This document shows positions 14,661-27,713 of a DNA stretch of 64,000 nt, piece after piece. How positions within the stretch are numbered: the stretch's first letter is position 1; each line of letters starts with the position of its first letter. The stretch comes from Labilithrix sp. (GTDB lineage Bacteria > Myxococcota_A > Polyangia > Polyangiales > Polyangiaceae). Made by a program: the position numbers and the translations under genes. The notes under the pieces were generated by a model. That model did no database searches, was not told where the DNA came from, and was given only the letters and a program-made list of their open reading frames with translations. The DNA lies in assembly GCA_026128965.1 (NCBI GenBank), contig JAHCIY010000002.1:1512108-1576107 (forward strand). Reading direction: 5' to 3'.

Positions 14661-16259
14661 TCACGAGCTCGTCGCGGGCACGTCGAGGCGCGGCGGCGTC
14701 TTGCCGAGCTTGGCGATGCGCGACCAGTCGAGGTGCACGCGCCCGCCGCTCGCGACGTGTTGCTTCTCCCACGCGGCGAGCGCCTCGTAGCAGGCGTGGT
14801 CGATGTGGTTCACGGCGTCGACGTACACGTGCACCTCGTGACCGGCGGGGATCTTCGCGAGCGTCGACGCGAGGGCGGGGAGGCGCAGGAACGTCGCCGA
14901 CCCTTCGAGCACGAGCACGGAGCGCTTCATCTCCGCGTCGTGCTCGAGGCGGACGCGGAGCTGCGTCAGCATCCACAGCACCTTGCCGAGCGCGAGGACG
15001 AGGCCGGTGAGGACGCCTTTCAGGAGGTCGGTCGACACGATCATCGCGACGGTGACGAAGAAGATGGCGACGTCGAAGCGCCCGCCGCGCGCGAGGATCG
15101 TGCGCACGTCCTGACGAACGAGCTTCGCGCCCGTGTACACGAGGAGGGCCGCGAGCGCCGACACGGGGACGAGTCGCAAGACGAACGGCACCGCCGCGAT
15201 GGCGGCGAGGAGCCACGCGCCGTGCATGATCGCGGAGAGCCGCGTCGTCGCGCCGGCCTGGATGTTGGCGCTGCTGCGGACGATGACGCCGGTCATCGGC
15301 AGCCCGCCGACGAGCCCGGCGAGGGTGTTGCCGATCCCTTGCGCGAGCATCTCGCGGTCGTATTTCGTGCGCGGCCCTTCGTGCATCCGATCGGTCGCCG
15401 TCGCGCAGAGCAACGTCTCCGTGCTCGCCACGAACGCGAGCGCGAGCGCGGCGCCGAGGACACGCGCGTCGAGGAGCACCGCGAACGTCGGCGCGGTGGG
15501 GATCTGCACGTTGGCGACGAGCCCATCCGGCATGTCCACGTGCGCGATCGGCGCGTGCACGACGTTGGCGACGACGGTGGCGAGGAGGATCCCGACGAGC
15601 GTGCCCGGAATGATCTTCGCGCGCGGCAGCCACCTCGCCGTGACCGCGTTCCACCCGAGGATCGTCACGAGCGTGAGCGAGCCGATGAGCGCCGCGTCGT
15701 CATGCGGCAACCCAGCGTGCGGGATCACGCCCTTCCAGACGGCGCCGGGGATCCCGGCGAGGTTGGCGAGCCCGCCCCCACGCGGCGCGTCGTCCACCAT
15801 CACGTGAAACTGGCTCGCGAAGATCAGCACGCCGATGCCACACAGCATCCCGAGCACGACCGCATGCGGCACGGCCTGAAACCACCGCCCGAGCCTCGCC
15901 ACACCTGCAACGATCTGCACCACACCAGCGACGACGACGATCGGCCCCAGTGCCGCGAACCCATGCGTCTGCACGAGATCCCAGACGATGACCGCGAGCC
16001 CAGCCGCGGGCCCACTCACCTGCAACGGCGCGCCCCCGATGAATCCGACGACGAGCCCCCCGATCACACCGGTGAGCAACCCAGCCGCGGGCGGCGCCCC
16101 CGACGCGATCGCGATCCCCAAACAGAGCGGCAACGCGACGAGAAACACGACGATCGAGGCAAGGAGGTCACGCACGATCGCCGCGCGCGCCCCGCCATGT
16201 TCGTCGTGATTCGCAGCGTTCATGATGTCGCAATCAGCAACGCGCGTGCCGCCATGCAT
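14661..16259 (-). CDS. SulP family inorganic anion transporter with C-terminal STAS domain
   Basis: Multiple TM segments. SulP motifs (GLVVGFIGGAPLQVSGPAAG). C-terminal STAS domain. The start may be the internal MNAANHDEH. Confidence 0.85.
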   Translation of the reverse strand: MHGGTRVADCDIMNAANHDEHGGARAAIVRDLLASIVVFLVALPLCLGIAIASGAPPAAGLLTGVIGGLVVGFIGGAPLQVSGPAAGLAVIVWDLVQTHGFAALGPIVVVAGVVQIVAGVARLGRWFQAVPHAVVLGMLCGIGVLIFASQFHVMVDDAPRGGGLANLAGIPGAVWKGVIPHAGLPHDDAALIGSLTLVTILGWNAVTARWLPRAKIIPGTLVGILLATVVANVVHAPIAHVDMPDGLVANVQIPTAPTFAVLLDARVLGAALALAFVASTETLLCATATDRMHEGPRTKYDREMLAQGIGNTLAGLVGGLPMTGVIVRSSANIQAGATTRLSAIMHGAWLLAAIAAVPFVLRLVPVSALAALLVYTGAKLVRQDVRTILARGGRFDVAIFFVTVAMIVSTDLLKGVLTGLVLALGKVLWMLTQLRVRLEHDAEMKRSVLVLEGSATFLRLPALASTLAKIPAGHEVHVYVDAVNHIDHACYEALAAWEKQHVASGGRVHLDWSRIAKLGKTPPRLDVPATSS

Positions 16260-16649
16260 CGGCCGAGCTCACGCCACACGAACCAGTCCCGTTCGGCTCG
16301 TCAAACGCGCCGCGCGCGCGAGCAGGCAGGAGCGTTGGTGAGGAGCGCAACGTCGATCGCGTCTTGGCCGCCATCGCGCGCGGTCCGCTCGAAGAGCCGA
16401 GCTCTGCTCCACGAGGAGGAGCGCGGCTCACGGCGCCGAGGTGCTCCAGCGATCAGCGTTCGTCCGTGCCTTCACCGAGGAGCCCGTACGCCAGCTACGT
16501 GAAGCATCCCAAGCACCAACCCCTCCGCGAAGCGCCCGCGCCCTACGCGAACCGCGCGAAGATCCGCACCGAACCACAGCCGCGCGAAGGGTGTTGACCT
16601 CCGTCACGCCGCGCATTACTACGACATCGTTCCGTTTCGACGGACGTGA

Positions 16650-16723
<74 letters not shown>

Positions 16724-16772
16724 CTGATAGCCGTACCACGACCCAGCCCTCGGCCCTCCGCCGGGGGCTTCG

Positions 16773-18039
16773 TCATTTCGGCGAGCGCGACGAGCGGGAG
16801 GAAGGTTGCCTCCGCGACGTAGACGCCGTCGTCTCCGGGGGTGAGCAGGATTCGTCCGCCTTCGAACATCCGGCGTAGAGCCTCGCGGGCGCGGAGGGGG
16901 TCCGCGGCGAGCACGGCGTCGAGGTCCTTCGCGCGTTCGAGGACGCGGTCGGGGTCGGGAGGTCCACGGGAGCGTTCATCCGGTCCTTGATGTTCTGAAT
17001 CGCCGTGCGTTCCGTGAGAGCTTGTGCCTCAAGGTCCCGAAGGGCGTCGCGGACCGAACTGGAATGGTCGCCGTCGGCGATGAAGGTGACGAGCCCGCGT
17101 ATGCGTTGCTCCGTCCGGGCGAGGCGGTCGAGCCTCTCCTTCATCTCGTGCTGTGCGAGCCGCGCGGCCTCACCGAGGTGCTCTGCAATGCGCTTGCGAA
17201 GGTGGGCCACCGCAGCCGGTGTGAAGACGGCTTCACGAAGCGCGCCATAGATGCGGGCGCGGACGAGGTCCTCTCGTACCGACAGGGCGTTCTTGCAGAC
17301 GCCCCGCTTCTTCGAGTCCCCGCAGCGATAGTACGAAGTTCGCGGTCCGACCGCCTTGCCGTCGACCTCCGCTCGGGAGCCGCCGGAGATGACCATCGGC
17401 GAGTGGCACGCTGCGCAGATGAGGAGTCCGGAGAGAGGGTAGGCCGTGCGGGCGCCGGGCGCAGACCGCGTCATCCGCTTTACCGTGTATCGACTCCGTA
17501 CTTCGGCGAGACGGGTCCGGACTCTTGTCGGGGACGCTGCAGTATCCAAGCGGGAGCCCGCCGGTCGAGTAGCCGGCGTTGAACTGACTCTCAAGCCCGC
17601 GCAGAGTCTTGTCGCGAAGAGCGTCGAGATAGAGGTCGGCGACCAGGCTCGACATCGTGAACGTCAGCTTGGCCGTCTTCAGTCCCGTGTTGACGCCATC
17701 GGCGACGCCTATGAGGGCGACGTCGAGGTACTGGAGGCGCTTGAAGATGAACGCCGCGTCGGCGAAGTCTCGCGACACGCGCGACATGTCCTCGACGAGA
17801 ATGACGTCGACCCGCTTCTCTTCGACGGCCTTCATCAGCCGCTCGAACCCCGGGCGTTGGAGGCTAGCGGCGCTGACGGCCTCGTCCTTGAAGATGAGCG
17901 CGGGAATCACCTCGGCTCCCGACGCTCGCGCCGCTTCCACGCACCGTCGTACTTGGTCATCGGTTGACCGTTCGTTCTGCAGGGCCGACGAGTGCCGTGC
18001 ATAGACGGCGATTTGCTTGCCGGCAAGGGTACTAGTCAT
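16773..18039 (-). pseudogene. large serine recombinase, disrupted by a frameshift and an internal deletion
   Basis: The resolvase domain (KQIAVYARHSS...VDVILVEDMSRVSR) plus GGLPLGY lie in the frame of ORF 17233..18162. The zinc ribbon (YPLSGLLICAACHSPM) and coiled coil lie in the frame of ORF 16773..17594. Only about 25 codons separate GY from the zinc ribbon where about 90 aa of recombinase domain are expected. Confidence 0.65.
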
Positions 18040-18685
18040 CGCGTACACCGGGTACGTCAGCATGACGAGCATCTCGGACGTCGGTCGTGGTCGAGGTCCG
18101 GCACCAGCCGAGCGCTTCACCGCCGAGACGCACATCGCGCCGACGCAGGTGGGCAAGGGCATCGCGGGTCCTCTCTCCGATGGCCTCGCGCTCCCACTGC
18201 GCCACCGACCCGATGATGTGGAGCACGAGACGTCCCGAGGCGGTACGGGTGTCGATGGAGTCGCCGAGGGAGAGTAGGGAGTGGCGCCGGGAGAAGTACC
18301 GCTCGACGAGGTCGCCGAGGTCGCGGACGCTGCGGGTTAGGCGGTCGAGTTTCACGACGAGAAGTCCGTCGGCTTCGTCGGCGTCGAGGCGCCCGAGGGC
18401 GCGGAGCAGTCCGGGTCGGCCCACCACCGTCTTCGCGGAGATGCCCGCGTCCTCCTCAATGGTGACGAGGTCGAGGTCCATCGCCTCTGCGTAGGCGGTG
18501 AGCTTGGCCCTCTGTGCTTCGAGGGAGGTGCCGGCGTCCGCCTGACCGTCCGTGCTGACCCGGATGTACCCGACCACGCGTGTTCCCAAGGCGTCACCTC
18601 CTTGCGAAGGGGTACCCCGGGGTGGTCCTCGTTTTCGAGATGGGCATCTCGTAAACGGCAAGTACCCCATTCCGATGGCTTCCAC
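18032..18685 (-). CDS. small serine recombinase, catalytic domain only (C-terminal HTH missing)
   Basis: VVGYIRVSTDGQ...LLVVKLDRLTRS...GSVAQWEREAIGERT is a resolvase/invertase catalytic domain. It has no DNA-binding HTH. It ends 7 bp inside the next recombinase gene. The true start is likely the GTG at 18577. Confidence 0.55.
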   Translation of the reverse strand: MEAIGMGYLPFTRCPSRKRGPPRGTPSQGGDALGTRVVGYIRVSTDGQADAGTSLEAQRAKLTAYAEAMDLDLVTIEEDAGISAKTVVGRPGLLRALGRLDADEADGLLVVKLDRLTRSVRDLGDLVERYFSRRHSLLSLGDSIDTRTASGRLVLHIIGSVAQWEREAIGERTRDALAHLRRRDVRLGGEALGWCRTSTTTDVRDARHADVPGVRDD

Positions 18686-18738
18686 TTGGCTGCGCCAGGC
18701 GGCTTGACATCCATCCAGGTCGCCATCATCATTCTTGG

Positions 18739-19212
18739 ATGACAGTTCGTCTTTCGGTCTTGCGACGCGGAACTCAGGTCGAGATTGAGGGGCCCGAGGC
18801 CTTCGTAACGAGCACTTTCGAGAGCTTGAGGGACCTGTTCGACAAGCCGAATGTTAAGGATGATAGCGCGGATGAACCGCCCACCAACGATGGCGAAAAG
18901 GCTGGCGAGGAAGGTTCGAGGGTGTCGCTCAAGACGTTCCTTGAGCAGAAGAAGCCTCAAAACTCCTACGAGGCCATCGCGTGCGTTCTCTATCACCACC
19001 AAAAGTTCCGCGAGCAGAGCGAACTGAACTCTGACGAGATACGGAAGGCGCTCCTCCAAGGCCGCGTGAAGCCGCCGGGGAACATGACGCAGACGCTTAC
19101 AGACTGCCGTCGCCGCTACGCGTACATCGAGCCTGGGACGAAGAAGGGACTCTGGAAGTTGAGCCACGACGGAGAGGTGACGGTCGACCTGGACCTGCCG
19201 CGCGAAAAATGA
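18739..19212 (+). CDS. hypothetical protein with a winged-helix-like domain shared with the two downstream proteins (cassette gene A)
   Basis: Low-GC gene with an ATGA overlap to the next gene. The region SLKTFLEQKKPQNSYEAIACVLYHH...KKGLWKLSHDGE aligns with 20391..21020 and with the N-terminus of 19209..20336. Confidence 0.6.
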   Translation: MTVRLSVLRRGTQVEIEGPEAFVTSTFESLRDLFDKPNVKDDSADEPPTNDGEKAGEEGSRVSLKTFLEQKKPQNSYEAIACVLYHHQKFREQSELNSDEIRKALLQGRVKPPGNMTQTLTDCRRRYAYIEPGTKKGLWKLSHDGEVTVDLDLPREK

Positions 19213-20336
19213 GTGAGACGTTTTCGGAGCTGTATGCGCAGCTACCTCGGGGGAAAAGGTCTCCAAGGAATGCCGTTCTTCTCGGTCTCCTCGTTCTTCG
19301 CGCGGATAAAGCCGCCTCGGCCGTCGACAGTAATGCCATTTCGGCTGAGCTGAAACTGCGCCTCGGCAAGGCGGCTCCTGGCAATGTGCCTGACGTTTTG
19401 AGGAAGGCCATTCCTCGAGTGGAATGCACTCGGGTCGCTAAAAGCGGACTGCGTTGGCATCTCACGAGGACAGGTGTCGACGAGCTTCGATCATACGGAC
19501 TTCAAGTGTCGCAGGAGAAGGCGGCACCGCCTGCTCGGTCGTTCGATGTCGCCATTGTCTGCGCTCTGCACAGTCCTGAACTTCACGAGGTTCTGAACGC
19601 GTTCGGAGGCGAGTCGAAATGGCAGAGCCAGCCCGACTTCGGTCAAACCCACATATACAAATCAATTGACGTGCCGTTGTCGGGCGCACCGCCTCTGAGT
19701 GTTGTGGCCGGAGCCCCCACGCACATGGGGCTTACTGCAACTGCCATCATCTCCACGCAAATGCTGCTCATGTTTAGACCTCGGCTCATCGTGATGGTCG
19801 GAATTGCAGCGGGCACGAAGGCCTCGGGACGAAACTACGGTGACATCTTGGTCGCTAACCCCAGCGTGGACTACGCGTCCGGCAAGATTGCGGTAGTTGA
19901 CGGCGTTGAGACATTTCAGCCCGATCCGTTTCCCTTGCCGGTCGACTCCAGACTGCACACGCTGGTCCAGGAAGATCGACGTACGAGAGAGGGACTGGAC
20001 GAGATCGCTGGTACTTGGGGCGGCGCCCGGCCCCGAACTTCGCTCAATATCCACATTGGTGCACTCGGGGCAGCGGACCAAGTGGTTGATAGCGAAAAGC
20101 GAATCCTCGATATCAAGAAGAACTGGCGAAAGTTGATCGGCGTCGAGATGGAGACGTATGCCCTCTACCGTGCTGCGCATGAGGCCCCGCGGCCGAAGCC
20201 TCTCTACGTGAGCTTCAAGTCAGTCTGTGACTTTGCTGCCGCGAAGGACGACGCGTGGCAGGAGTACGCCGCCTTTACAGCGGCTCAGTACTGTCGCCGT
20301 TTCCTGCTCAAAAACTGGTCTGTGCTCAGTGCCTGA
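19209..20336 (+). CDS. fusion of the shared winged-helix-like domain (N-terminus) with a PNP/UDP-phosphorylase family nucleosidase (MTA/SAH-nucleosidase fold) domain (cassette gene B)
   Basis: The C-terminal 270 aa read FDVAIVCALHSPE...IVMVGIAAGT...GVEMETYALYRAA, which is the PNP_UDP_1 fold. The N-terminus PRNAVLLGLLVL...PGNVPDVLRKAI...KSGLRWHLTRTG resembles the domain in genes A and C. Confidence 0.7.
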   Translation: MSETFSELYAQLPRGKRSPRNAVLLGLLVLRADKAASAVDSNAISAELKLRLGKAAPGNVPDVLRKAIPRVECTRVAKSGLRWHLTRTGVDELRSYGLQVSQEKAAPPARSFDVAIVCALHSPELHEVLNAFGGESKWQSQPDFGQTHIYKSIDVPLSGAPPLSVVAGAPTHMGLTATAIISTQMLLMFRPRLIVMVGIAAGTKASGRNYGDILVANPSVDYASGKIAVVDGVETFQPDPFPLPVDSRLHTLVQEDRRTREGLDEIAGTWGGARPRTSLNIHIGALGAADQVVDSEKRILDIKKNWRKLIGVEMETYALYRAAHEAPRPKPLYVSFKSVCDFAAAKDDAWQEYAAFTAAQYCRRFLLKNWSVLSA

Positions 20337-20390
20337 CAACTGAGTTCATTCATATCCAATATTCATTTTCGTGCGAGCGCAAGAGCGCCA

Positions 20391-21020
20391 TTGGGGACAG
20401 GAAGCTTTATGAGCGAAGATGCGAAGTCTGATTTTATGGCGGCGGAAGAGATTAAGAAGATTCTGCACGGTCGGCAAAAGGCAGAACAGGAACGCATCGT
20501 CCGATGGGTGAGTGAGAGCCTTGAGCTTGCCGGTGCAGCGGTCAAGCCGAAGGTCGAACACGCGCACCCGGGCGTTCACGTTCCCGCGACGCTTGCGGAC
20601 ACGCCCTCGAGGCCCAGAGACGGAGAGGCAGGGCCCAAGGACTTTCGAAGCTTCTTCCAAGAGAAGCAGCCGAAGAACGATGTTCAGTTCGTGGCCGTGG
20701 CCGCGTACTACCACCGCTTCATGGCACCCGCCGCTGACCGCAAGGAGGCGATTTCGTCTGCAGACCTCCAGGACGCAGCGCGTCTCGCCCCCTGGACCGT
20801 TTTCGCGAAACCGAGCAAGACACTCGGCAACGCTGTGCGGCAAGGCTACATGAACGGCTCTGGAAGAGGCACGTACCGATTGAATGCAGTGGGCGAGAAC
20901 CTGGTGTCCATGACACTTCCGGGGACGGCCACGACTGGTTCAACTAAGGGCGGCCGCGGGAAGCGGCGACCATCGAAGAAGGCGGGAGCAAAGAAGTCAC
21001 GGAAGTCCGGCAAGGGATGA
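20391..21020 (+). CDS. hypothetical protein with the shared winged-helix-like domain and a Lys/Arg/Gly-rich C-terminal tail (cassette gene C)
   Basis: DFRSFFQEKQPKNDVQFVAVAAYYHRF...GRGTYRLNAVGE is a paralogue of gene A. The tail is GSTKGGRGKRRPSKKAGAKKSRKSGKG. ATGA overlap with the next gene. Confidence 0.6.
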   Translation: MGTGSFMSEDAKSDFMAAEEIKKILHGRQKAEQERIVRWVSESLELAGAAVKPKVEHAHPGVHVPATLADTPSRPRDGEAGPKDFRSFFQEKQPKNDVQFVAVAAYYHRFMAPAADRKEAISSADLQDAARLAPWTVFAKPSKTLGNAVRQGYMNGSGRGTYRLNAVGENLVSMTLPGTATTGSTKGGRGKRRPSKKAGAKKSRKSGKG

Positions 21021-21820
21021 GTGACACACTCGGACATATCGAGGCGGCCATCGCCGAGGTGGCACGGGCACGAAGCGCAGTGCAGCGTTCAAAGTCCCCC
21101 CAAGTCCGTGGCGCCGAAGAACGTGACGGTCTGAAGGCCGTGGCCTATGCGTGGTTCAAGACCCACAAGCCGCGCGTCGGAGACCTCGACGTGAGTGCTG
21201 TCGACAATGCATACCAGAAGGTTCTCGACGCCACCGCGAAGGCCGCCGCTCGGTCTACCTACGTGAGCACGCTGAAGGCGGCAAAGGACGCGCTCGTCAC
21301 TCTCCGTCGCCTTGTGACTGCAGTCCCTGTCCGGAATAGCAAGACGACAGCGGATGCGCCGCCGCCATTTGCGTCGCTTACCGGAGATGTCGCCATGCAG
21401 GAGATTCTCACCCGACGATGGACTGAGGTGCAGACCTGCATCAACGCGGGAGCCAATCTGGCGGCGACCGTGATGATGGGCGGCCTAATGGAGACGCTGC
21501 TTCTTGCGCGCATCAACGTCGTCGCGAACAAAGCCCCCATCTACACTGCGAAGAATGCACCCAAGGACAAGGCCGGCAAGACACTGTCGCTCAATGACTG
21601 GAAGTTGGTCGCCATGGTAGAAGTTGCGCACGAAGTTGGATGGATAACGAAGTCCGCCAAGGATGTCGGGAACGTCCTTAGAGACTTTCGGAACTACATT
21701 CACCCGCACAAGGAACACACCGATGGCATCTTGATAGGCGCGGAAGACGCGCGTGTGTTCTGGGAGGTTTGCGGGGCTATCAGTCGGCAACTCCTGGCCT
21801 CGACTGGCAAGATTCCCTGA
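21017..21820 (+). CDS. HEPN-like protein with a putative R-x6-H nuclease motif (cassette gene D)
   Basis: Alpha-helical protein. The C-terminal motif DFRNYIHPHKE fits the Rx4-6H pattern of HEPN RNases. Translationally coupled to gene C. Confidence 0.55.
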   Translation: MSDTLGHIEAAIAEVARARSAVQRSKSPQVRGAEERDGLKAVAYAWFKTHKPRVGDLDVSAVDNAYQKVLDATAKAAARSTYVSTLKAAKDALVTLRRLVTAVPVRNSKTTADAPPPFASLTGDVAMQEILTRRWTEVQTCINAGANLAATVMMGGLMETLLLARINVVANKAPIYTAKNAPKDKAGKTLSLNDWKLVAMVEVAHEVGWITKSAKDVGNVLRDFRNYIHPHKEHTDGILIGAEDARVFWEVCGAISRQLLASTGKIP

Positions 21821-21854
21821 ACCCCGCCGCAAGCAGCTCGTAGCAACTTCCCGC

Positions 21855-22499
21855 CTAAGACACGTCGTCTACACGACACAGCCGGACGCCGACACGCTGC
21901 CTGAGGTCGTGGTACGGCCCGCGTATCGCCCCCGCGCAACTACTCGCAGAATACCGCGGATCTTGGTCCGCACCCCGCCGCCCTCCCTGGTCCGCCACGG
22001 AGGGCGGAGTCGTTAGTAGGACCAGCGGGAGGATCTCGGACTCGGCGACGTAGAACCCGCCCGGTTGAGGGTTGAGTCGAATCTTCCCGTCATGGAAGAG
22101 GCGCCTGAGCTCTTCCCGTCCCTTGGAGACGTCCGCCATCAGGCGACGCTCGAGATCGAAGACCAGCGCGGTCATCCCCTCCGGCGTCGGGAGGGAGATC
22201 GGCACCGTGGCGTCGCGCTCGAGGGCCTTTACCTGGCGACGGAGGACCTTCGCTTCGGTTTCGAGCGTCTTCAACCGTTCGCGGATCGTCGGCGAACCTT
22301 GGCCGTCCGCGATGAAGTCGACCATCGACGAACCGCAGACCCCGCAGACAAGGAGCGAGGAGAAGAGGTACGAGCTCGCGCGTCCCGGAAGCGCGCGCCC
22401 CTTCGGCGAAGTCCGACGACATGATCGCGACGCTCGTCGTCTTCGGGCCACCGAGCTCGGGCGGCAACGTGAGGAAGGCATCGCCGTAGCGGTCTCCAT
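21855..22499 (-). pseudogene. C-terminal remnant of a second large serine recombinase (zinc ribbon + coiled coil)
   Basis: SSYLFSSLLVCGVCGSSMV...LKTLETEAKVLRRQVKALE parallels the C-terminus of 16773..18039. There is no catalytic or recombinase domain upstream. Confidence 0.55.
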
Positions 22500-22657
22500 T
22501 GTTGGCTACTGCCGTCCCTCAAAAGAACCCCTCGTGGCCATCCACTTCGTTCCGCCAAGGGCCTCGTCGGCGAATCACGTCGGCCGTGAAGATGACCGTC
22601 TCCGCTAGCGCGCTGTCGCTCTTGAGCGAGTTCGACACGTGCCAGCCGACGATCGAC

Positions 22658-22843
22658 CTAGACGACGCCCGCCCAGGTCGCATCGTAGGTGAGGTCGGCG
22701 ACCCAGAGCTGGTTCGGTCGCTCGGCGTGGAACTCTCGCGGCGCGAGGCCCGGCGGCCGCGGCGACGCGTCGTCGGCCTCGGTGGTGATCTTGAACGCGC
22801 GTCCGCGGACGGCGGCTGCGAAGCGTTCGCCACGAAGTGACAA
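22658..22843 (-). mobile_element. IS3-family transposase (rve integrase core) fragment
   Basis: FHAERPNQLWVADLTYDATWAGVV matches the start of the IS3 OrfB catalytic core. Only about 60 codons remain. Confidence 0.5.
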
Positions 22844-22884
22844 GTGGCGTCCCCTTCAGGTATGGTCGGCTCGGAAGCGCGGTC

Positions 22885-23577
22885 ATGGTCGTCTTGCGTC
22901 AGCGGAGCACGCGGATTCGTTTCGTCATCCCTCACGCGCTGTTGGCGTTGCTGGCCGTGGTTGCGGCGTGCAGCTCATCGAGCACGGCCGGTGGAACTGT
23001 GCCGTGCGAGGTCGAATGCGACGGGGACGAGGTCTGCTCCGCAGGGAAGTGCGTCCCAGCGACGGACGCCTCGACATCCGAGACGGGCACGAAGCAGGAC
23101 GGCGAGTCGTGCGTCATCACCGGCTCGAACTGTGACCCGTCTTGCTTGGAGTCCTGCGGTGCGTCGTCGTCCTGCGTCGACCGGTGCTGTCCCGATACGA
23201 AGGGCGCGGGCATCCTCTGCGGCGGTCAGTGCGTCGCGCCGAAATGCAAAAAGGGCGAGACCTCCTCGACGTGGGAGGGGTTCTCGGAGCGCGAGTGGAC
23301 CTGCTACGAGATAGCCGGCGGCTGCGACTGCACGAACACGTCGACGCGCGCCGAACTGGTGGCGGACGGCATGAAGATCTTGCCGAGCTGCGCTGGCGCC
23401 TCCTGCGCAATCGATCTCGACTCGCCTGCTCTGACCTGCACGTGCCGCGCGACGGGCACATCACTCCCGCGCGACTGCCCCGGGACCGTCTGCACGGCAG
23501 GCGTCTTGGCTTGCACGGGACCGTTCAACTTCAAGTGCGATGACCCGTGCGTCGGGGTCGCCGTGCTCCATCCGTAA
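22885..23577 (+). CDS. cysteine-rich secreted lipoprotein
   Basis: Signal peptide with lipobox (LLALLAVVAAC-SSS). More than 30 Cys in CxxC/CxC arrangements. Native high GC, so it lies outside the island. Confidence 0.6.
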   Translation: MVVLRQRSTRIRFVIPHALLALLAVVAACSSSSTAGGTVPCEVECDGDEVCSAGKCVPATDASTSETGTKQDGESCVITGSNCDPSCLESCGASSSCVDRCCPDTKGAGILCGGQCVAPKCKKGETSSTWEGFSEREWTCYEIAGGCDCTNTSTRAELVADGMKILPSCAGASCAIDLDSPALTCTCRATGTSLPRDCPGTVCTAGVLACTGPFNFKCDDPCVGVAVLHP

Positions 23578-23984
23578 ACGACACCTGGAACGGTCCGCCG
23601 AGCACGGCGCGGTAGCCGAGCTCCGGGCGCGGGTACCGTGCAAGCGTCATCTCCGCCAAACGGGCGACGTACGGTCCGATCGTGGTTCGTGCACGAGCAA
23701 GGCGCGCTCGTTTCGGTGCTCCGCGTGGCGGCGGCGCGTGACGAGCAGATGTTCGCTTCGATGCAAAGGAAGCCTGGATGAGAGGCGCATCGCGCGGGCG
23801 GATGGGAATCGGGCGCCGGGGGCTCGGCGATCGCGCGCTCGATCACGGCGGCGATGGTCGGGGATGGCCGGTGCGACGTGGCATCCGTCCCAGAAGGCGT
23901 CGGCGAAGTCGTACGGCGCGGCATGGCCGCTCCTGCGCTCTCCGCCTCGGCGGCCTCGTCGCGGCCTCGTGTTAGCCTCCGGGC

Positions 23985-26900
23985 GTGTGGGAGCGCTTTG
24001 AGCTTGGCGCGCGTGTGAACGGCGGCGGGATGGGGGACGTGTATCGCGCGGTCGATCGCGTGACGGGGGACGTCGTCGCGGTGAAGCGGATGCGCACCGT
24101 TCAGGCGGAGGCTACGCAGCGCTTCTTGCGGGAGAGCCGGCTCCTCGAGGCCGTGAGCCATCCTGGCATCGTGCGCTACGTCGCGCACGGCATCGATGAC
24201 GACGGCGCCGCGTGGCTCGCGATGGAGTGGCTCGATGGCGAAGACCTCGGGGAGCGGCTCGCGCGAAAGGCGCTCGCGCCGGCGGAGTCGCTCGAGGTGG
24301 CCGCGCTCGTCGCGGAGGCGCTCGGCGCCGCTCATCGCGCCGGCGTCGTCCATCGCGACGTGAAGCCGAGCAACGTGTTCCTCGTCGGCCGCGACCCGAA
24401 GGACGTGCGGCTGCTCGATCTCGGGATCGCGAAGCCGCTCCGCGGCACGGCGATCACGGCCGCCGGGATGATGGTCGGTACGATCGGTTATCTCTCGCCC
24501 GAGCAGGCGCGCGGCAAGCCCGTCGACGCGCGGAGCGACGTCTTCTCGCTCGGGTGTCTGCTCTTCGAGTGCCTCACCGGGCGGTCCGCCTATCACGCGG
24601 AGCACGCCGCCGCCGTGGTCGGGAAGCTCCTCACCGAGGCGCCGCCCGCGCCGAGCAGCGTCGACCCGAGCTTCGCGCGGTACGACGCATTGTTCGCGCG
24701 GTTGCTCGCGCCGCTCGAGCAGCGCCTCTCGGACGGCGCCGCCGTGGCGCGGGCGATCCGCGCGCTCGAAGCGGAGGCGTCGGGCGCGGCGGCGAAGTCG
24801 GTCCCGCCCTCGAAGCTCACCGACCGCGAACGACAGGCGCTCACCGTCGTGCTCGCGCGCCCGCATGGGCTCGACCCGAGCGGCGCGACCGAAGCGGAGG
24901 CCTCCGAAGAGCGCAAGCGACAGCGCCTCGCGCATGCGGCCGCGGCCGCACATGCACGGCATGAATGGCTGCCGGGCGGCCTCTTCCTCTTCGTTTGGGA
25001 GCTCGACTCGGCGCGCGATCAGACCATCCGCGCCGCGCGTTTCGCGCTCGCGCTGCAGCACGAAGGCGGATACACGATCGCGCTCGCGACCGGCTTCGGC
25101 GAGCGCGCCGGCTCGAACGCGGTCGGCGGCGTCATCGATCGCGCCGCGAGCCTCGTCTCGCGCGCGGGCGAGGTCTCCGTCGCGCTGGACCCCGCGTCGA
25201 TCGAGATCCTGCGCCATCGCTTCGAGATCGACGGCGCGCGGCTGGGCGCGGAGCTCGCGCGCGCGCACGAGATCGCGGACCGAACGCCGTTCGTCGGACG
25301 CGACCGCGAGATGCGGCTCATCACGAGCTTGCTCGACGAGTGCGTCGCCGACGGCACGACGCGGGCGATCCTCGTCACCGGCGAGGCCGGCGCGGGGAAG
25401 TCGCGGCTCCTGCGCGAGCTCCTGCGACGAAGCGCTCCCGAGCGCGTCTGGATCGCGCGCGGCGATCCGATGCGCCCGGGCTCGCCCTACACGATGCTCT
25501 CGCAGCTCCTTCGGCGCGCCGCGGGAATGAGCGCGACGGCGACCGATCGCGGGGCCTTCGTCCGCGCCCTCCGCGCGCTCGTCGCGGACGAAGGCGCGCT
25601 CGAGCTGCTCGCGCACGTCGCGGGCTTCGTCGATGAAGCGCCGAGCGCCGCGTTGCGCGCGGCGCAGAATAGCCCGTCCGTCATGGCGACGCACATCCGG
25701 CAGGCGGCCCTCGCCCTCTGCGCGGCGGGCGCGGGCGAAGGCCTGCTCGTCGTGATGCTCGAAGACCTGCATTGGGCGGACGCGCCGAGCCTTCGAGTCT
25801 TCGAGTCGCTCGTGCACGCGGTGGAGCACCCGATCTTCATCGTCGGCGCCGCGCGGCCGACCTTTCACGAGACGTTCCCCGGGATCTGGACGAGCCAGGG
25901 CGTCGAAGAGCTGCGCCTCGCCGGGCTCGCGCGCAAGGCCGCGGAGGCGCTCGCGCTCGCCCTTCGGCCCGGCGCGAGCAGCGAAGCCGTTCGCCACGCC
26001 GTCGATCGCGCCGGCGGCAGCCCGCTCTGGCTCGAAGAGCTGTTCCGGCACGGCGGGGGCGACTCCGCGGAGACGCCCGATTCGCTCCTCGCCGTCATCC
26101 AGACGCACTTGGCGCGGGAGCCGTCGAACGAGCGCCTCGTCCTGCGCGCGGCGGCGGTGTTCGGCGAGCGCGCGTGGCTCGACGGTATCGCCCTGCTCGC
26201 CGGACGAGCCGCGTCCGAGATCGAGCTCGCGGTCGCTTCTCTCGTCGAGAAGGAGTGGCTGGTGCCCCTCGAAGCGTCGCGCTTCGCCGGCGAGCGCGAG
26301 GTGCGCTTCCGCCATGGCCTGCTCCGCGACGCCGCCTACGCCGCCTTGACGAGCGAAGACCGCAAGGTGGGGCACCGCCTCGCGGCGGAGTGGCTCCGGG
26401 CCGCCGGTGAACGCGACGCGCTCTCGCTCGCGGAGCACTACGAGCGCTCCGAGACGCCGGCGGCGGCGATCCCACATTTCGTCGTCGCCGCGCGCGAAGC
26501 CTCGATGGCCAACGATCTCGACGCGGCGCTCCTGTGCGCTGCGCGCGGGATCGCGCTCGGCGCCACCGGCAGCGACCTGCATCGACTCTTGCTCGCCGAA
26601 GGGAGCGCGCTCAGCTGGCGTGGCAAGGTGAGGGAAGGCTGGCGATCGTTCGACCGTGCGTTGCGCGAGACGGCGACCGCGAGCGCGGATCCGGCCGTCG
26701 TCTCGTGGGCAGCGATGAGCGGCGCGATGAACATGGACGCGTCGATGACGAGGCGCGCCGCGAACGCGCTCGAGTCGCTCGACCCCGCCACGTGCCCCGG
26801 CGACGACTACCAGCAAGCCGCTAGCTTCGTCGTCGTCGCGCTCTATTGGGACGGCGAGCGCGAGCGCGCCGACGCGGTGCTCGCCAAGCTCGCGCTCCTG

Positions 26901-27713
26901 CCCGACGATCCCGATCCGCGGGCGCGCGGCTGGAACGCGCACAGCCGCGCGCAGCACGCCCGCTTCAGCCTGGGGAACACGTGGCTCGATCGAGCGGCGT
27001 GCTTGGAGAGCGAGCGGGCCTTCGAGGAGGCGCGCGACCCCGCGGGCTACGGCCACTCGCTCAGCCAGCTCGTCATCGCGGAGCTCTCGCTCGACGCGCG
27101 TGAAGAGGCGACGGCGTACGGTACACGCGGGTACGCGCAGGCGCAGAAGTACTCGTTGCCGATCCTGAACGCGTGGTCGCTCCCGGTGACCGCGCTCGCG
27201 ATGCCCGATCCCGCCTCGGCGAGGGCGCGCGTCGAAGAGTCGATCCGCAGCGCCTCGATGCTGGGCGACGGCGTCTTCGGCGCGTATTCGCTCGTGCTCA
27301 CGGCTCACGTGCAGCGCATCCTCGGCGATCCCGAAGGCGCGATCGACACGCTGACGAAGGTGCTGTCGCAGGAGCCGGCCTTCGCCGTCGACTGCGCCTG
27401 CCACATGCAGCTCGCCGGCGCGCTCTTCGAAGCCGGCCGCGCGGAGGAGGCCGCCGCGGAGTGCATGACCGTCGTCGCGGCGACGCAGCACCGGCATCTT
27501 CACGGCGCGCTCGACCTCGACTTCTTCGCGACGAGCGCCGAGACGATGCTCGCCGTCGGACAGGTCGATGCGTGCCGGATGGTGCTCGCGCGCGGGCAGA
27601 AGGTCATCGCGCGCCGCGCGGACGCGATCGACGAGCCCGCGCGACGAGAGCGCTTCCTGACGTGCACGTTCGCGCAGCGGCTTCGACGTGTCGCCGCCGA
27701 GCTCGCCCGGTGA
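23985..27713 (+). CDS. serine/threonine protein kinase with degenerate cyclase-like domain, AAA/STAND NTPase domain and TPR repeats
   Basis: Kinase motifs VAVKRM, HRDVKPSNV, DLGIAK. Walker A GEAGAGKSRLLRE. C-terminal TPR-like repeats. This is the myxobacterial PknK-like architecture. Confidence 0.85.
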   Translation: MWERFELGARVNGGGMGDVYRAVDRVTGDVVAVKRMRTVQAEATQRFLRESRLLEAVSHPGIVRYVAHGIDDDGAAWLAMEWLDGEDLGERLARKALAPAESLEVAALVAEALGAAHRAGVVHRDVKPSNVFLVGRDPKDVRLLDLGIAKPLRGTAITAAGMMVGTIGYLSPEQARGKPVDARSDVFSLGCLLFECLTGRSAYHAEHAAAVVGKLLTEAPPAPSSVDPSFARYDALFARLLAPLEQRLSDGAAVARAIRALEAEASGAAAKSVPPSKLTDRERQALTVVLARPHGLDPSGATEAEASEERKRQRLAHAAAAAHARHEWLPGGLFLFVWELDSARDQTIRAARFALALQHEGGYTIALATGFGERAGSNAVGGVIDRAASLVSRAGEVSVALDPASIEILRHRFEIDGARLGAELARAHEIADRTPFVGRDREMRLITSLLDECVADGTTRAILVTGEAGAGKSRLLRELLRRSAPERVWIARGDPMRPGSPYTMLSQLLRRAAGMSATATDRGAFVRALRALVADEGALELLAHVAGFVDEAPSAALRAAQNSPSVMATHIRQAALALCAAGAGEGLLVVMLEDLHWADAPSLRVFESLVHAVEHPIFIVGAARPTFHETFPGIWTSQGVEELRLAGLARKAAEALALALRPGASSEAVRHAVDRAGGSPLWLEELFRHGGGDSAETPDSLLAVIQTHLAREPSNERLVLRAAAVFGERAWLDGIALLAGRAASEIELAVASLVEKEWLVPLEASRFAGEREVRFRHGLLRDAAYAALTSEDRKVGHRLAAEWLRAAGERDALSLAEHYERSETPAAAIPHFVVAAREASMANDLDAALLCAARGIALGATGSDLHRLLLAEGSALSWRGKVREGWRSFDRALRETATASADPAVVSWAAMSGAMNMDASMTRRAANALESLDPATCPGDDYQQAASFVVVALYWDGERERADAVLAKLALLPDDPDPRARGWNAHSRAQHARFSLGNTWLDRAACLESERAFEEARDPAGYGHSLSQLVIAELSLDAREEATAYGTRGYAQAQKYSLPILNAWSLPVTALAMPDPASARARVEESIRSASMLGDGVFGAYSLVLTAHVQRILGDPEGAIDTLTKVLSQEPAFAVDCACHMQLAGALFEAGRAEEAAAECMTVVAATQHRHLHGALDLDFFATSAETMLAVGQVDACRMVLARGQKVIARRADAIDEPARRERFLTCTFAQRLRRVAAELAR

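Follow-up and report, generated by a model that had tools for sequence, protein, structure and literature searches.

HEPN RNases are central effectors in CRISPR, in toxin-antitoxin (TA) modules and in abortive infection, and HEPN toxins with protein partners are already known. Here we describe a gene pair in a 64,000-nucleotide stretch of Labilithrix sp. DNA (contig JAHCIY010000002.1, positions 1,512,108 to 1,576,107; hereafter the window), which encodes a 267-residue protein with a predicted C-terminal HEPN domain and, directly upstream, a small winged-helix protein, the partner. We consider it rather probable that the two form a TA or abortive-infection module, in which a dimeric, metal-independent HEPN RNase would be held inactive by its co-translated winged-helix partner. 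No description of this family was found in the literature, though one may exist; new are the family itself, its partner, the N-terminal domain of the effector and the Rx3H core of its motif.

Among the described systems, RAZR (PD-T7-4) has a DUF4145-type domain that is an experimentally shown HEPN RNase with a role in abortive infection and carries catalytic R146 and H154 at a non-canonical spacing (PMC13017515). The window protein resembles it in the HEPN fold, in an R..N..H-type motif with non-canonical spacing where helix 3 ends, as well as in the similar fusions found in the two groups, which involve zinc ribbons, restriction-modification (R-M) modules and Abi N-terminal domains. However, RAZR has an N-terminal zinc finger where the window protein has a four-helix bundle, and it is the product of a single gene activated by assembling on phage ring proteins, whereas the window protein has an obligate separate winged-helix partner. 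In retron type IX (Retron-Kva2) a winged-helix protein wraps the HEPN RNase, on its own mitigates the toxicity of that enzyme and is required for defence, and the HEPN protein again has a non-canonical catalytic motif (bioRxiv 10.64898/2026.07.14.738597). The likeness to our locus lies in a HEPN RNase with such a motif being encoded beside a winged-helix protein. Yet two additional domains for binding HEPN set the Kva2 winged-helix protein apart, the order of the genes and the catalytic residues are not the same, and no evidence of homology was found. No reverse transcriptase occurs among the called neighbours in seven loci of our family, and an Rfam search of positions 16000-24000 of the window found tRNA-Met only and thus no type III antitoxin or retron non-coding RNA.

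AbiE, the AbiEi-AbiEii type IV TA system, is likewise a bicistronic operon and shares the AbiEi_4 winged helix with our partner, but its toxin is the AbiEii/DUF1814 nucleotidyltransferase and not a HEPN protein, and its winged helix-turn-helix (wHTH) domain is N-terminal in AbiEi and C-terminal here. The type II TA pairs RnlA-RnlB and LsoA-LsoB show no sequence relationship to our pair and contain other N-terminal domains; moreover, the putative antitoxin described here lies upstream and has a winged helix. HepT-MntA (HEPN-MNT, type VII TA), finally, differs in that our effector has an additional N-terminal domain and our partner no nucleotidyltransferase domain. Since Pfam scans found no such domain in the partner family, neutralisation by AMPylation is excluded.

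Fold and catalytic-type residues of the HEPN-domain protein

The 267-residue open reading frame (ORF) product is identical to KIT84_18645, a hypothetical protein listed at NCBI for a Labilithrix sp. metagenome-assembled genome. AlphaFold2 (AF2) models of the protein are all-alpha save for one small beta bridge, as the original prediction, made from the letters of the window alone, had anticipated, and they show a core of four up-down helices, the second and third of which are separated by a variable insert, as in the HEPN superfamily (Pfam clan CL0291). HEPN proteins also lead the structure comparison, with the HepT toxins 5yep (10.8) and 7ae2 (10.5) and AbiA (10.5) at its head, followed by TTHA0636, YutE, ST0689, Roquin, Csm6, GlnE, Csx1, MtlR, kanamycin nucleotidyltransferase, DrrA, LsoA, AbiV, RnlA and HepS. 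The HEPN-like assignment made in the original prediction, for which a four-helix core in a structure prediction had been named as the check, is therefore borne out by the models, in which the C-terminal half of the protein has the HEPN fold. Overall the modelled protein is a two-domain effector, consisting of an N-terminal four-helix domain, a flexible linker and the C-terminal HEPN domain.

The segment D223-F-R225-N-Y-I-H229-P-H231-K-E233 (21683-21715) had been read as the Rx4-6H motif of HEPN RNases. A match to this pattern alone is uninformative, because at least one is found in 68% of shuffled versions of the 267-residue protein, so that fold and conservation have to carry the case. Conservation was counted over 269 family sequences, with denominators that vary by column. 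E159 is conserved in 264/265, R225 in 236/237, N226 in 234/235, H229 and P230 each in 233/234, and R222 in 220/238 sequences, and all of these except R222 are also invariant in 32 distant relatives that share the HEPN domain only. H231, on the other hand, is conserved in only 134/233 sequences overall and in 15 of the 113 representatives at 50% identity, and a reading of the motif as R225-x5-H231 was rejected for this reason. In the models R225 and N226 close core helix 3 (residues 212-228), H229 opens the following loop and E159 lies in the helix formed by residues 147-168. This modelled placement is the arrangement described for HEPN RNases, which carry the motif where helix 3 ends and an acidic residue in helix 2, and among which catalytic families keep the motif and non-catalytic ones lose it (PMC3710099). 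The sequence context of E159 is E-x5-R, as compared to the Ex3[KR] typical of HEPN proteins. Thus the motif is present and, as had been demanded of it, conserved among homologues, but its proposed spacing holds only in part: the near-invariant pair R225(N226)-H229 is an Rx3H, and R222-x6-H229 alone lies within the canonical range, R222 being conserved in 92% of the sequences and followed by D or E.

The winged-helix partner and the proposed function of the pair

The two genes are coupled by an ATGA overlap, as originally noted, with the ATG of the HEPN gene (21017-21019) overlapping the TGA of the partner gene (21018-21020) within GGGATGAGT. Of 80 genome loci, about 72 carry a partner homologue directly upstream of the HEPN gene and on its strand; the others are truncated, decayed or C-domain-only relatives. 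The reverse search, over 80 metagenome loci collected with the partner profile, found the HEPN gene directly downstream in 72 and frameshifted in one, and the other seven loci end too early to tell, so that all 73 loci with enough sequence are paired. The distance from stop to start has a median of 6.5 nucleotides in 72 related loci, six of which show the same 4-nucleotide overlap. The pairing is obligate, and the pair displays the layout by which type II TA systems are recognised, that is, a bicistronic arrangement, a tight or overlapping junction and strict co-occurrence.

From its N- to its C-terminus the partner protein comprises a conserved helix (KSDFxAAEEIKxIL...EQERIxRWVxESL), a linker that varies and is probably disordered, a conserved winged-helix domain in the C-terminal part and a Lys/Arg-rich tail. 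Its earlier description as a winged-helix protein agrees with matches to Pfam AbiEi_4 in 6/25 members of the partner family (best E 2.7e-5). The AbiEi_4 wHTH is the DNA-binding domain of AbiEi, which is both antitoxin and autorepressor, and the sequence of the partner suggests that it, too, probably binds nucleic acid, be it its own promoter or a trigger. The N-terminal four-helix domain of the effector is confined to family members that have the partner gene. As the C-domain-only relatives, which lack this domain, also lack the partner gene, the domain is a candidate docking site and suggests that the partner docks there.

On these grounds we infer RNase activity, toxicity, neutralisation by the partner and a trigger along the following lines. 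Both proteins would be made in step from one transcript. To judge from HEPN enzymes that have been characterised, the HEPN domain would form dimers and cut cellular RNA with no need of a metal cofactor, with H229 serving as the general base, R225 (with R222) and N226 binding and stabilising the phosphate, and E159 contributing from helix 2; this cleavage would bring growth to a stop. The partner would keep the RNase silent by direct binding, possibly via the N-terminal domain of the effector, and would probably also contact nucleic acid, either the promoter of the operon or a trigger. Were the partner lost or displaced, for instance upon phage infection or once the element is gone, the RNase would be set free. 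We read the pair as a conflict module of this kind because its catalytic-type residues are near-invariant, because relatives of its HEPN domain are fused to AbiTii, methylase or zinc-ribbon modules and lie next to PIN, integrase and likely Wadjet genes, and because of the strict pairing and the low-GC context of the locus.

But would the partner restrain the RNase or rather switch it on? In a sensor-effector defence pair the winged-helix protein, with its basic tail, would sense phage nucleic acid or protein and activate an auto-inhibited RNase, and loss of the partner would abolish function. Homologous wHTH proteins precede different effectors, a PNP protein in the window and a Ymh-family HEPN protein on the metagenome contig L092, and swapped effectors behind a constant partner are typical of defence systems. 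In addition, the winged-helix protein of retron type IX is required for defence, and the extra N-terminal domain of our effector could serve in auto-inhibition. However, the upstream position, small size and disordered linker of the partner are the usual layout of an antitoxin, and its AbiEi_4 wHTH has a known counterpart in a protein that acts both as antitoxin and as autorepressor. We regard a sensor as rather unlikely and take the partner to be more probably the inhibitor of a TA or abortive-infection RNase.

Distribution of the family and its place among HEPN proteins

Homologues of the 267-residue protein form 1687 clusters at 90% identity and 1430 at 50% identity, none of which has a Pfam domain and all of which are named 'hypothetical protein'. 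The 80 loci of the genome scan come from Myxococcota, Verrucomicrobiota, Planctomycetota, Chloroflexota, Acidobacteriota, Alpha-, Beta- and Gammaproteobacteria, Desulfobacterota, Chlorobiota, Bacteroidota, Nitrospirota, Actinomycetota, Armatimonadota, Bdellovibrionota, Saccharibacteria and further groups. The pair looks horizontally mobile, and its distribution is patchy across many phyla. Three of the 80 loci belong to cultured strains (Alloalcanivorax marinus R8-12, Niastella caeni HX-16-21 and Anaeromyxobacter soli SG29), which makes the system experimentally tractable. It offers a clean two-gene setting in which to ask how a winged-helix partner controls a HEPN nuclease, and a natural test of the Arg-His spacing tolerated in a HEPN active site; as such it is a good experimental target, though unsurprising to the specialist. 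Searches of the 267-residue protein against Pfam, NCBIfam, PADLOC and PHROGs returned noise only, and because the family is invisible to these collections current defence and TA censuses miss it.

Where does the family belong among HEPN proteins? The window protein itself has no match to DUF4145 (PF13643), but relatives score between 14 and 19.4 bits (E 0.054 to 0.0011; Pfam gathering cutoff 23.1), the best being a Streptomyces relative (E 0.0011, 19.4 bits), and weak matches occur in 4/33 distant members (E ~0.03 or weaker). In relatives the HEPN domain is fused to an N-terminal AbiTii domain (n=6), to a DNA methylase (n=1) and in some cases to zinc ribbons, and comparable fusions are listed for the DUF4145-like clade, which includes MtlR (PMC3710099). 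The sub-threshold matches and these fusions suggest, at the level of sequence, that the family is an unnamed HEPN branch close to DUF4145 and, by Pfam's rule, not a member of PF13643. PADLOC recognised in the distant relatives only the N-terminal AbiTii or R-M modules and not PD-T7-4/RAZR.

Identity with the AbiTii-fused c2405 family, which has the conserved His and no Arg (PMC3710099), was considered but does not seem to hold. The probable c2405 of E. coli CFT073 (C_RS11400, picked by position and a C-terminal HhH domain only) shows no similarity to our domain profile in hmmsearch or hhalign, and the RNxxHP family described here, by contrast, has an invariant Arg. In one of the 50%-identity representatives, P0258 (255 residues), an N-terminal helix and a winged helix that resemble those of the partner run straight into the second half of the HEPN domain, and HEPN helices 1-2 and the N-terminal domain are absent; this protein is more likely a chimera, formed by deletion or in assembly, than a fusion with a function.

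Several findings weigh against the proposed TA or abortive-infection RNase. The invariant Arg-His pair has an x3 spacing, outside the canonical x4-6, and in 8% of the sequences the residue that would restore that range, R222, is replaced by K, M, G, C or Q. HEPN proteins head the Foldseek list against the PDB, yet every E value is at least 0.45, and the top match is MtlR, one of those HEPN-fold proteins of the DUF4145-like clade that are non-catalytic regulators. No curated HEPN profile reached its threshold in the window protein or the relatives scanned, and sequence searches of the PDB with the single protein and with the domain profile gave no match. Nor was an operator-like inverted repeat found upstream of the partner gene in the window. 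Finally, the neighbourhoods are not consistently defence islands (L001 is an example), a phage collection contained no match to the family, and on plasmids only distant C-domain relatives were found, on megaplasmids.

Some of these points would also suit a non-catalytic HEPN-fold regulator, which would bind a ligand or protein, as MtlR does or the HEPN domains joined to nucleotidyltransferases do, and regulate transcription together with the partner, without cleaving RNA. MtlR belongs to the same DUF4145-like clade (PMC3710099) and was found by both structure searches, the Arg-His spacing is non-canonical, and the partner is predicted to bind DNA. Such a regulator is nevertheless very unlikely in our judgement, since over 230 sequences, drawn from more than 15 phyla, keep R-N...H and the Glu of helix 2 almost without exception, which is the pattern of catalytic HEPN families. 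Moreover, the fusions with AbiTii, methylase and zinc ribbons, the integrase, PIN and likely Wadjet genes nearby, and the occurrence as a patchy cassette without conserved metabolic neighbours all argue for the RNase instead.

Genomic context and the adjacent gene A module

The positions of the features are collected in Table 1.

Table 1. Features of the gene pair and of the neighbouring module, in positions of the window.
Feature	Position	Strand	Description and basis
HEPN-domain protein gene	21017..21820	+	267 residues, ATG start; ORF call and NCBI protein match
Partner gene	20409..21020	+	203 residues from the NCBI start; longest ORF begins at TTG 20391
ATGA start/stop overlap of partner gene and HEPN gene	21017..21020	+	sequence GGGATGAGT
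N-terminal four-helix domain, residues 1-102	21017..21322	+	AF2 helices 2-24, 33-53, 60-74, 79-102
HEPN-fold domain (modelled), residues 121-262	21377..21802	+	core helices 125-143, 147-168, 212-228, 242-262; insert 169-211
E159, conserved acidic residue of core helix 2	21491..21493	+	264/265 sequences
Catalytic-type motif region, R222 to P230	21680..21706	+	conservation counts and AF2 secondary structure
Gene A and PNP_UDP_1 neighbour module, separate from the pair	18739..20336	+	157-residue gene A 18739-19212; PNP protein 19209-20336

In seven annotated neighbourhoods only the pair is conserved and the other neighbours vary, comprising BrnT, Phd/YefM, AbiEi/AbiEii and MqsA-type TA genes, integrases, a Y1 transposase, RhuM and housekeeping genes, with no conserved metabolic genes among them. 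In the window the pair follows gene A, which is ATGA-coupled to a 375-residue phosphorylase-superfamily protein (Pfam PNP_UDP_1, 2.7e-15; PADLOC PDC-M60C, 4.4e-63). All four genes share a strand and a single low-GC block (18739-21820), and the winged helix of gene A is homologous to that of the partner (hhalign against the partner family, 83% probability, E 8.6e-6), with 34/34 of its tblastn cross-matches falling on partner genes. One could thus imagine a four-gene, PDC-M60-like candidate system in which the pair would be non-functional alone. The genomic survey largely refutes this idea, which we find scarcely credible: a PNP homologue occurs in 0/165 related loci, from which it follows that the pair is independent of the gene A/PNP module, the seven annotated neighbourhoods show conservation of the pair only, PADLOC has no PDC-M60 model that matches the HEPN protein or the partner, and gene A homologues pair with an effector of their own elsewhere.

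An example of the latter is the metagenome contig L092 (323-1548), where a homologue of gene A with 45% identity is coupled to a HEPN protein of the Ymh family (PF09509), whose first ~100 residues are 40% identical to the N-terminus of the PNP protein (E 2e-16). As the gene A homologue here precedes a Ymh-family HEPN protein and not PNP, the effector has been swapped behind the same small winged-helix protein, and interchangeable toxic effectors of this sort fit a role in conflict systems. It is conceivable, though we put this forward tentatively and would not be surprised to see it fail, that our pair represents a broader unnamed class in which a small protein with this particular winged helix is translationally coupled to a toxic two-domain effector with an interchangeable head. 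The winged-helix protein would then sense nucleic acid as a guard, holding the effector back and also setting it off, and Rx3H would be a distinct catalytic geometry among HEPN RNases. If so, three heads have been seen, namely the RNxxHP HEPN, the Ymh-family HEPN and a PNP-type nucleosidase, and two modules of this class follow each other in the window, on an island linked to tRNA-Met.

The four-gene block at 18.7-21.8 kb has a GC content of 57-62%, versus 68-74% in its flanks, and for this reason looks like an integrated island. It is flanked by tRNA-Met and serine-recombinase genes on one side and by recombinase and insertion sequence (IS) remnants on the other. After the tRNA-Met(CAT) at 16650-16724 come minus-strand ORFs for serine recombinases, of which a Resolvase ORF (17233-18162) and a Zn_ribbon_recom ORF (16773-17594) overlap in different frames and may represent one large serine recombinase with a frameshift; another Resolvase ORF is located at 18032-18685. 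The recombinase-like and IS-like remnants lie 3' of the HEPN gene at 21855-22935. A perfect 14-nucleotide inverted repeat (GCCGTACCACGACC / GGTCGTGGTACGGC) occupies positions 16730-16743 and 21905-21918, just past the tRNA and just past the HEPN gene, and so brackets the recombinases and the four genes. By our own estimate chance would give ~0.1 repeats of this kind in 8 kb, so that the repeat may be either a site of recombination or coincidental.

The PNP gene is separated from the partner gene by a 72-nucleotide spacer (20337-20408; TTCATTCATATCCAATATTCATTTTC), which is unusually AT-rich for this genome and may contain a promoter of the pair's own, and a good AGGAAG Shine-Dalgarno sequence precedes the partner ATG at 20409. 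A scan for promoter and terminator consensus sequences gave background level only, with no promoter in the spacer.

Two of the HEPN-domain-only relatives on plasmids overlap other genes. In Streptomyces chartreusis (L087, 217-5417) the relative overlaps the end of the gene for a 1453-residue AAA protein, beside TIGR02679/TIGR02680 genes, which we take to be JetD/JetC-like and thus likely Wadjet. In Paraburkholderia fungorum pBIL (L086, 2679-6640) it overlaps the gene for a 395-residue PIN-domain protein, beside a site-specific integrase. In the window itself, shortly downstream of the island (23985-27713, plus strand), is encoded a 1242-residue protein of STAND-like architecture that combines a Ser/Thr kinase with AAA_16 and TPR domains.
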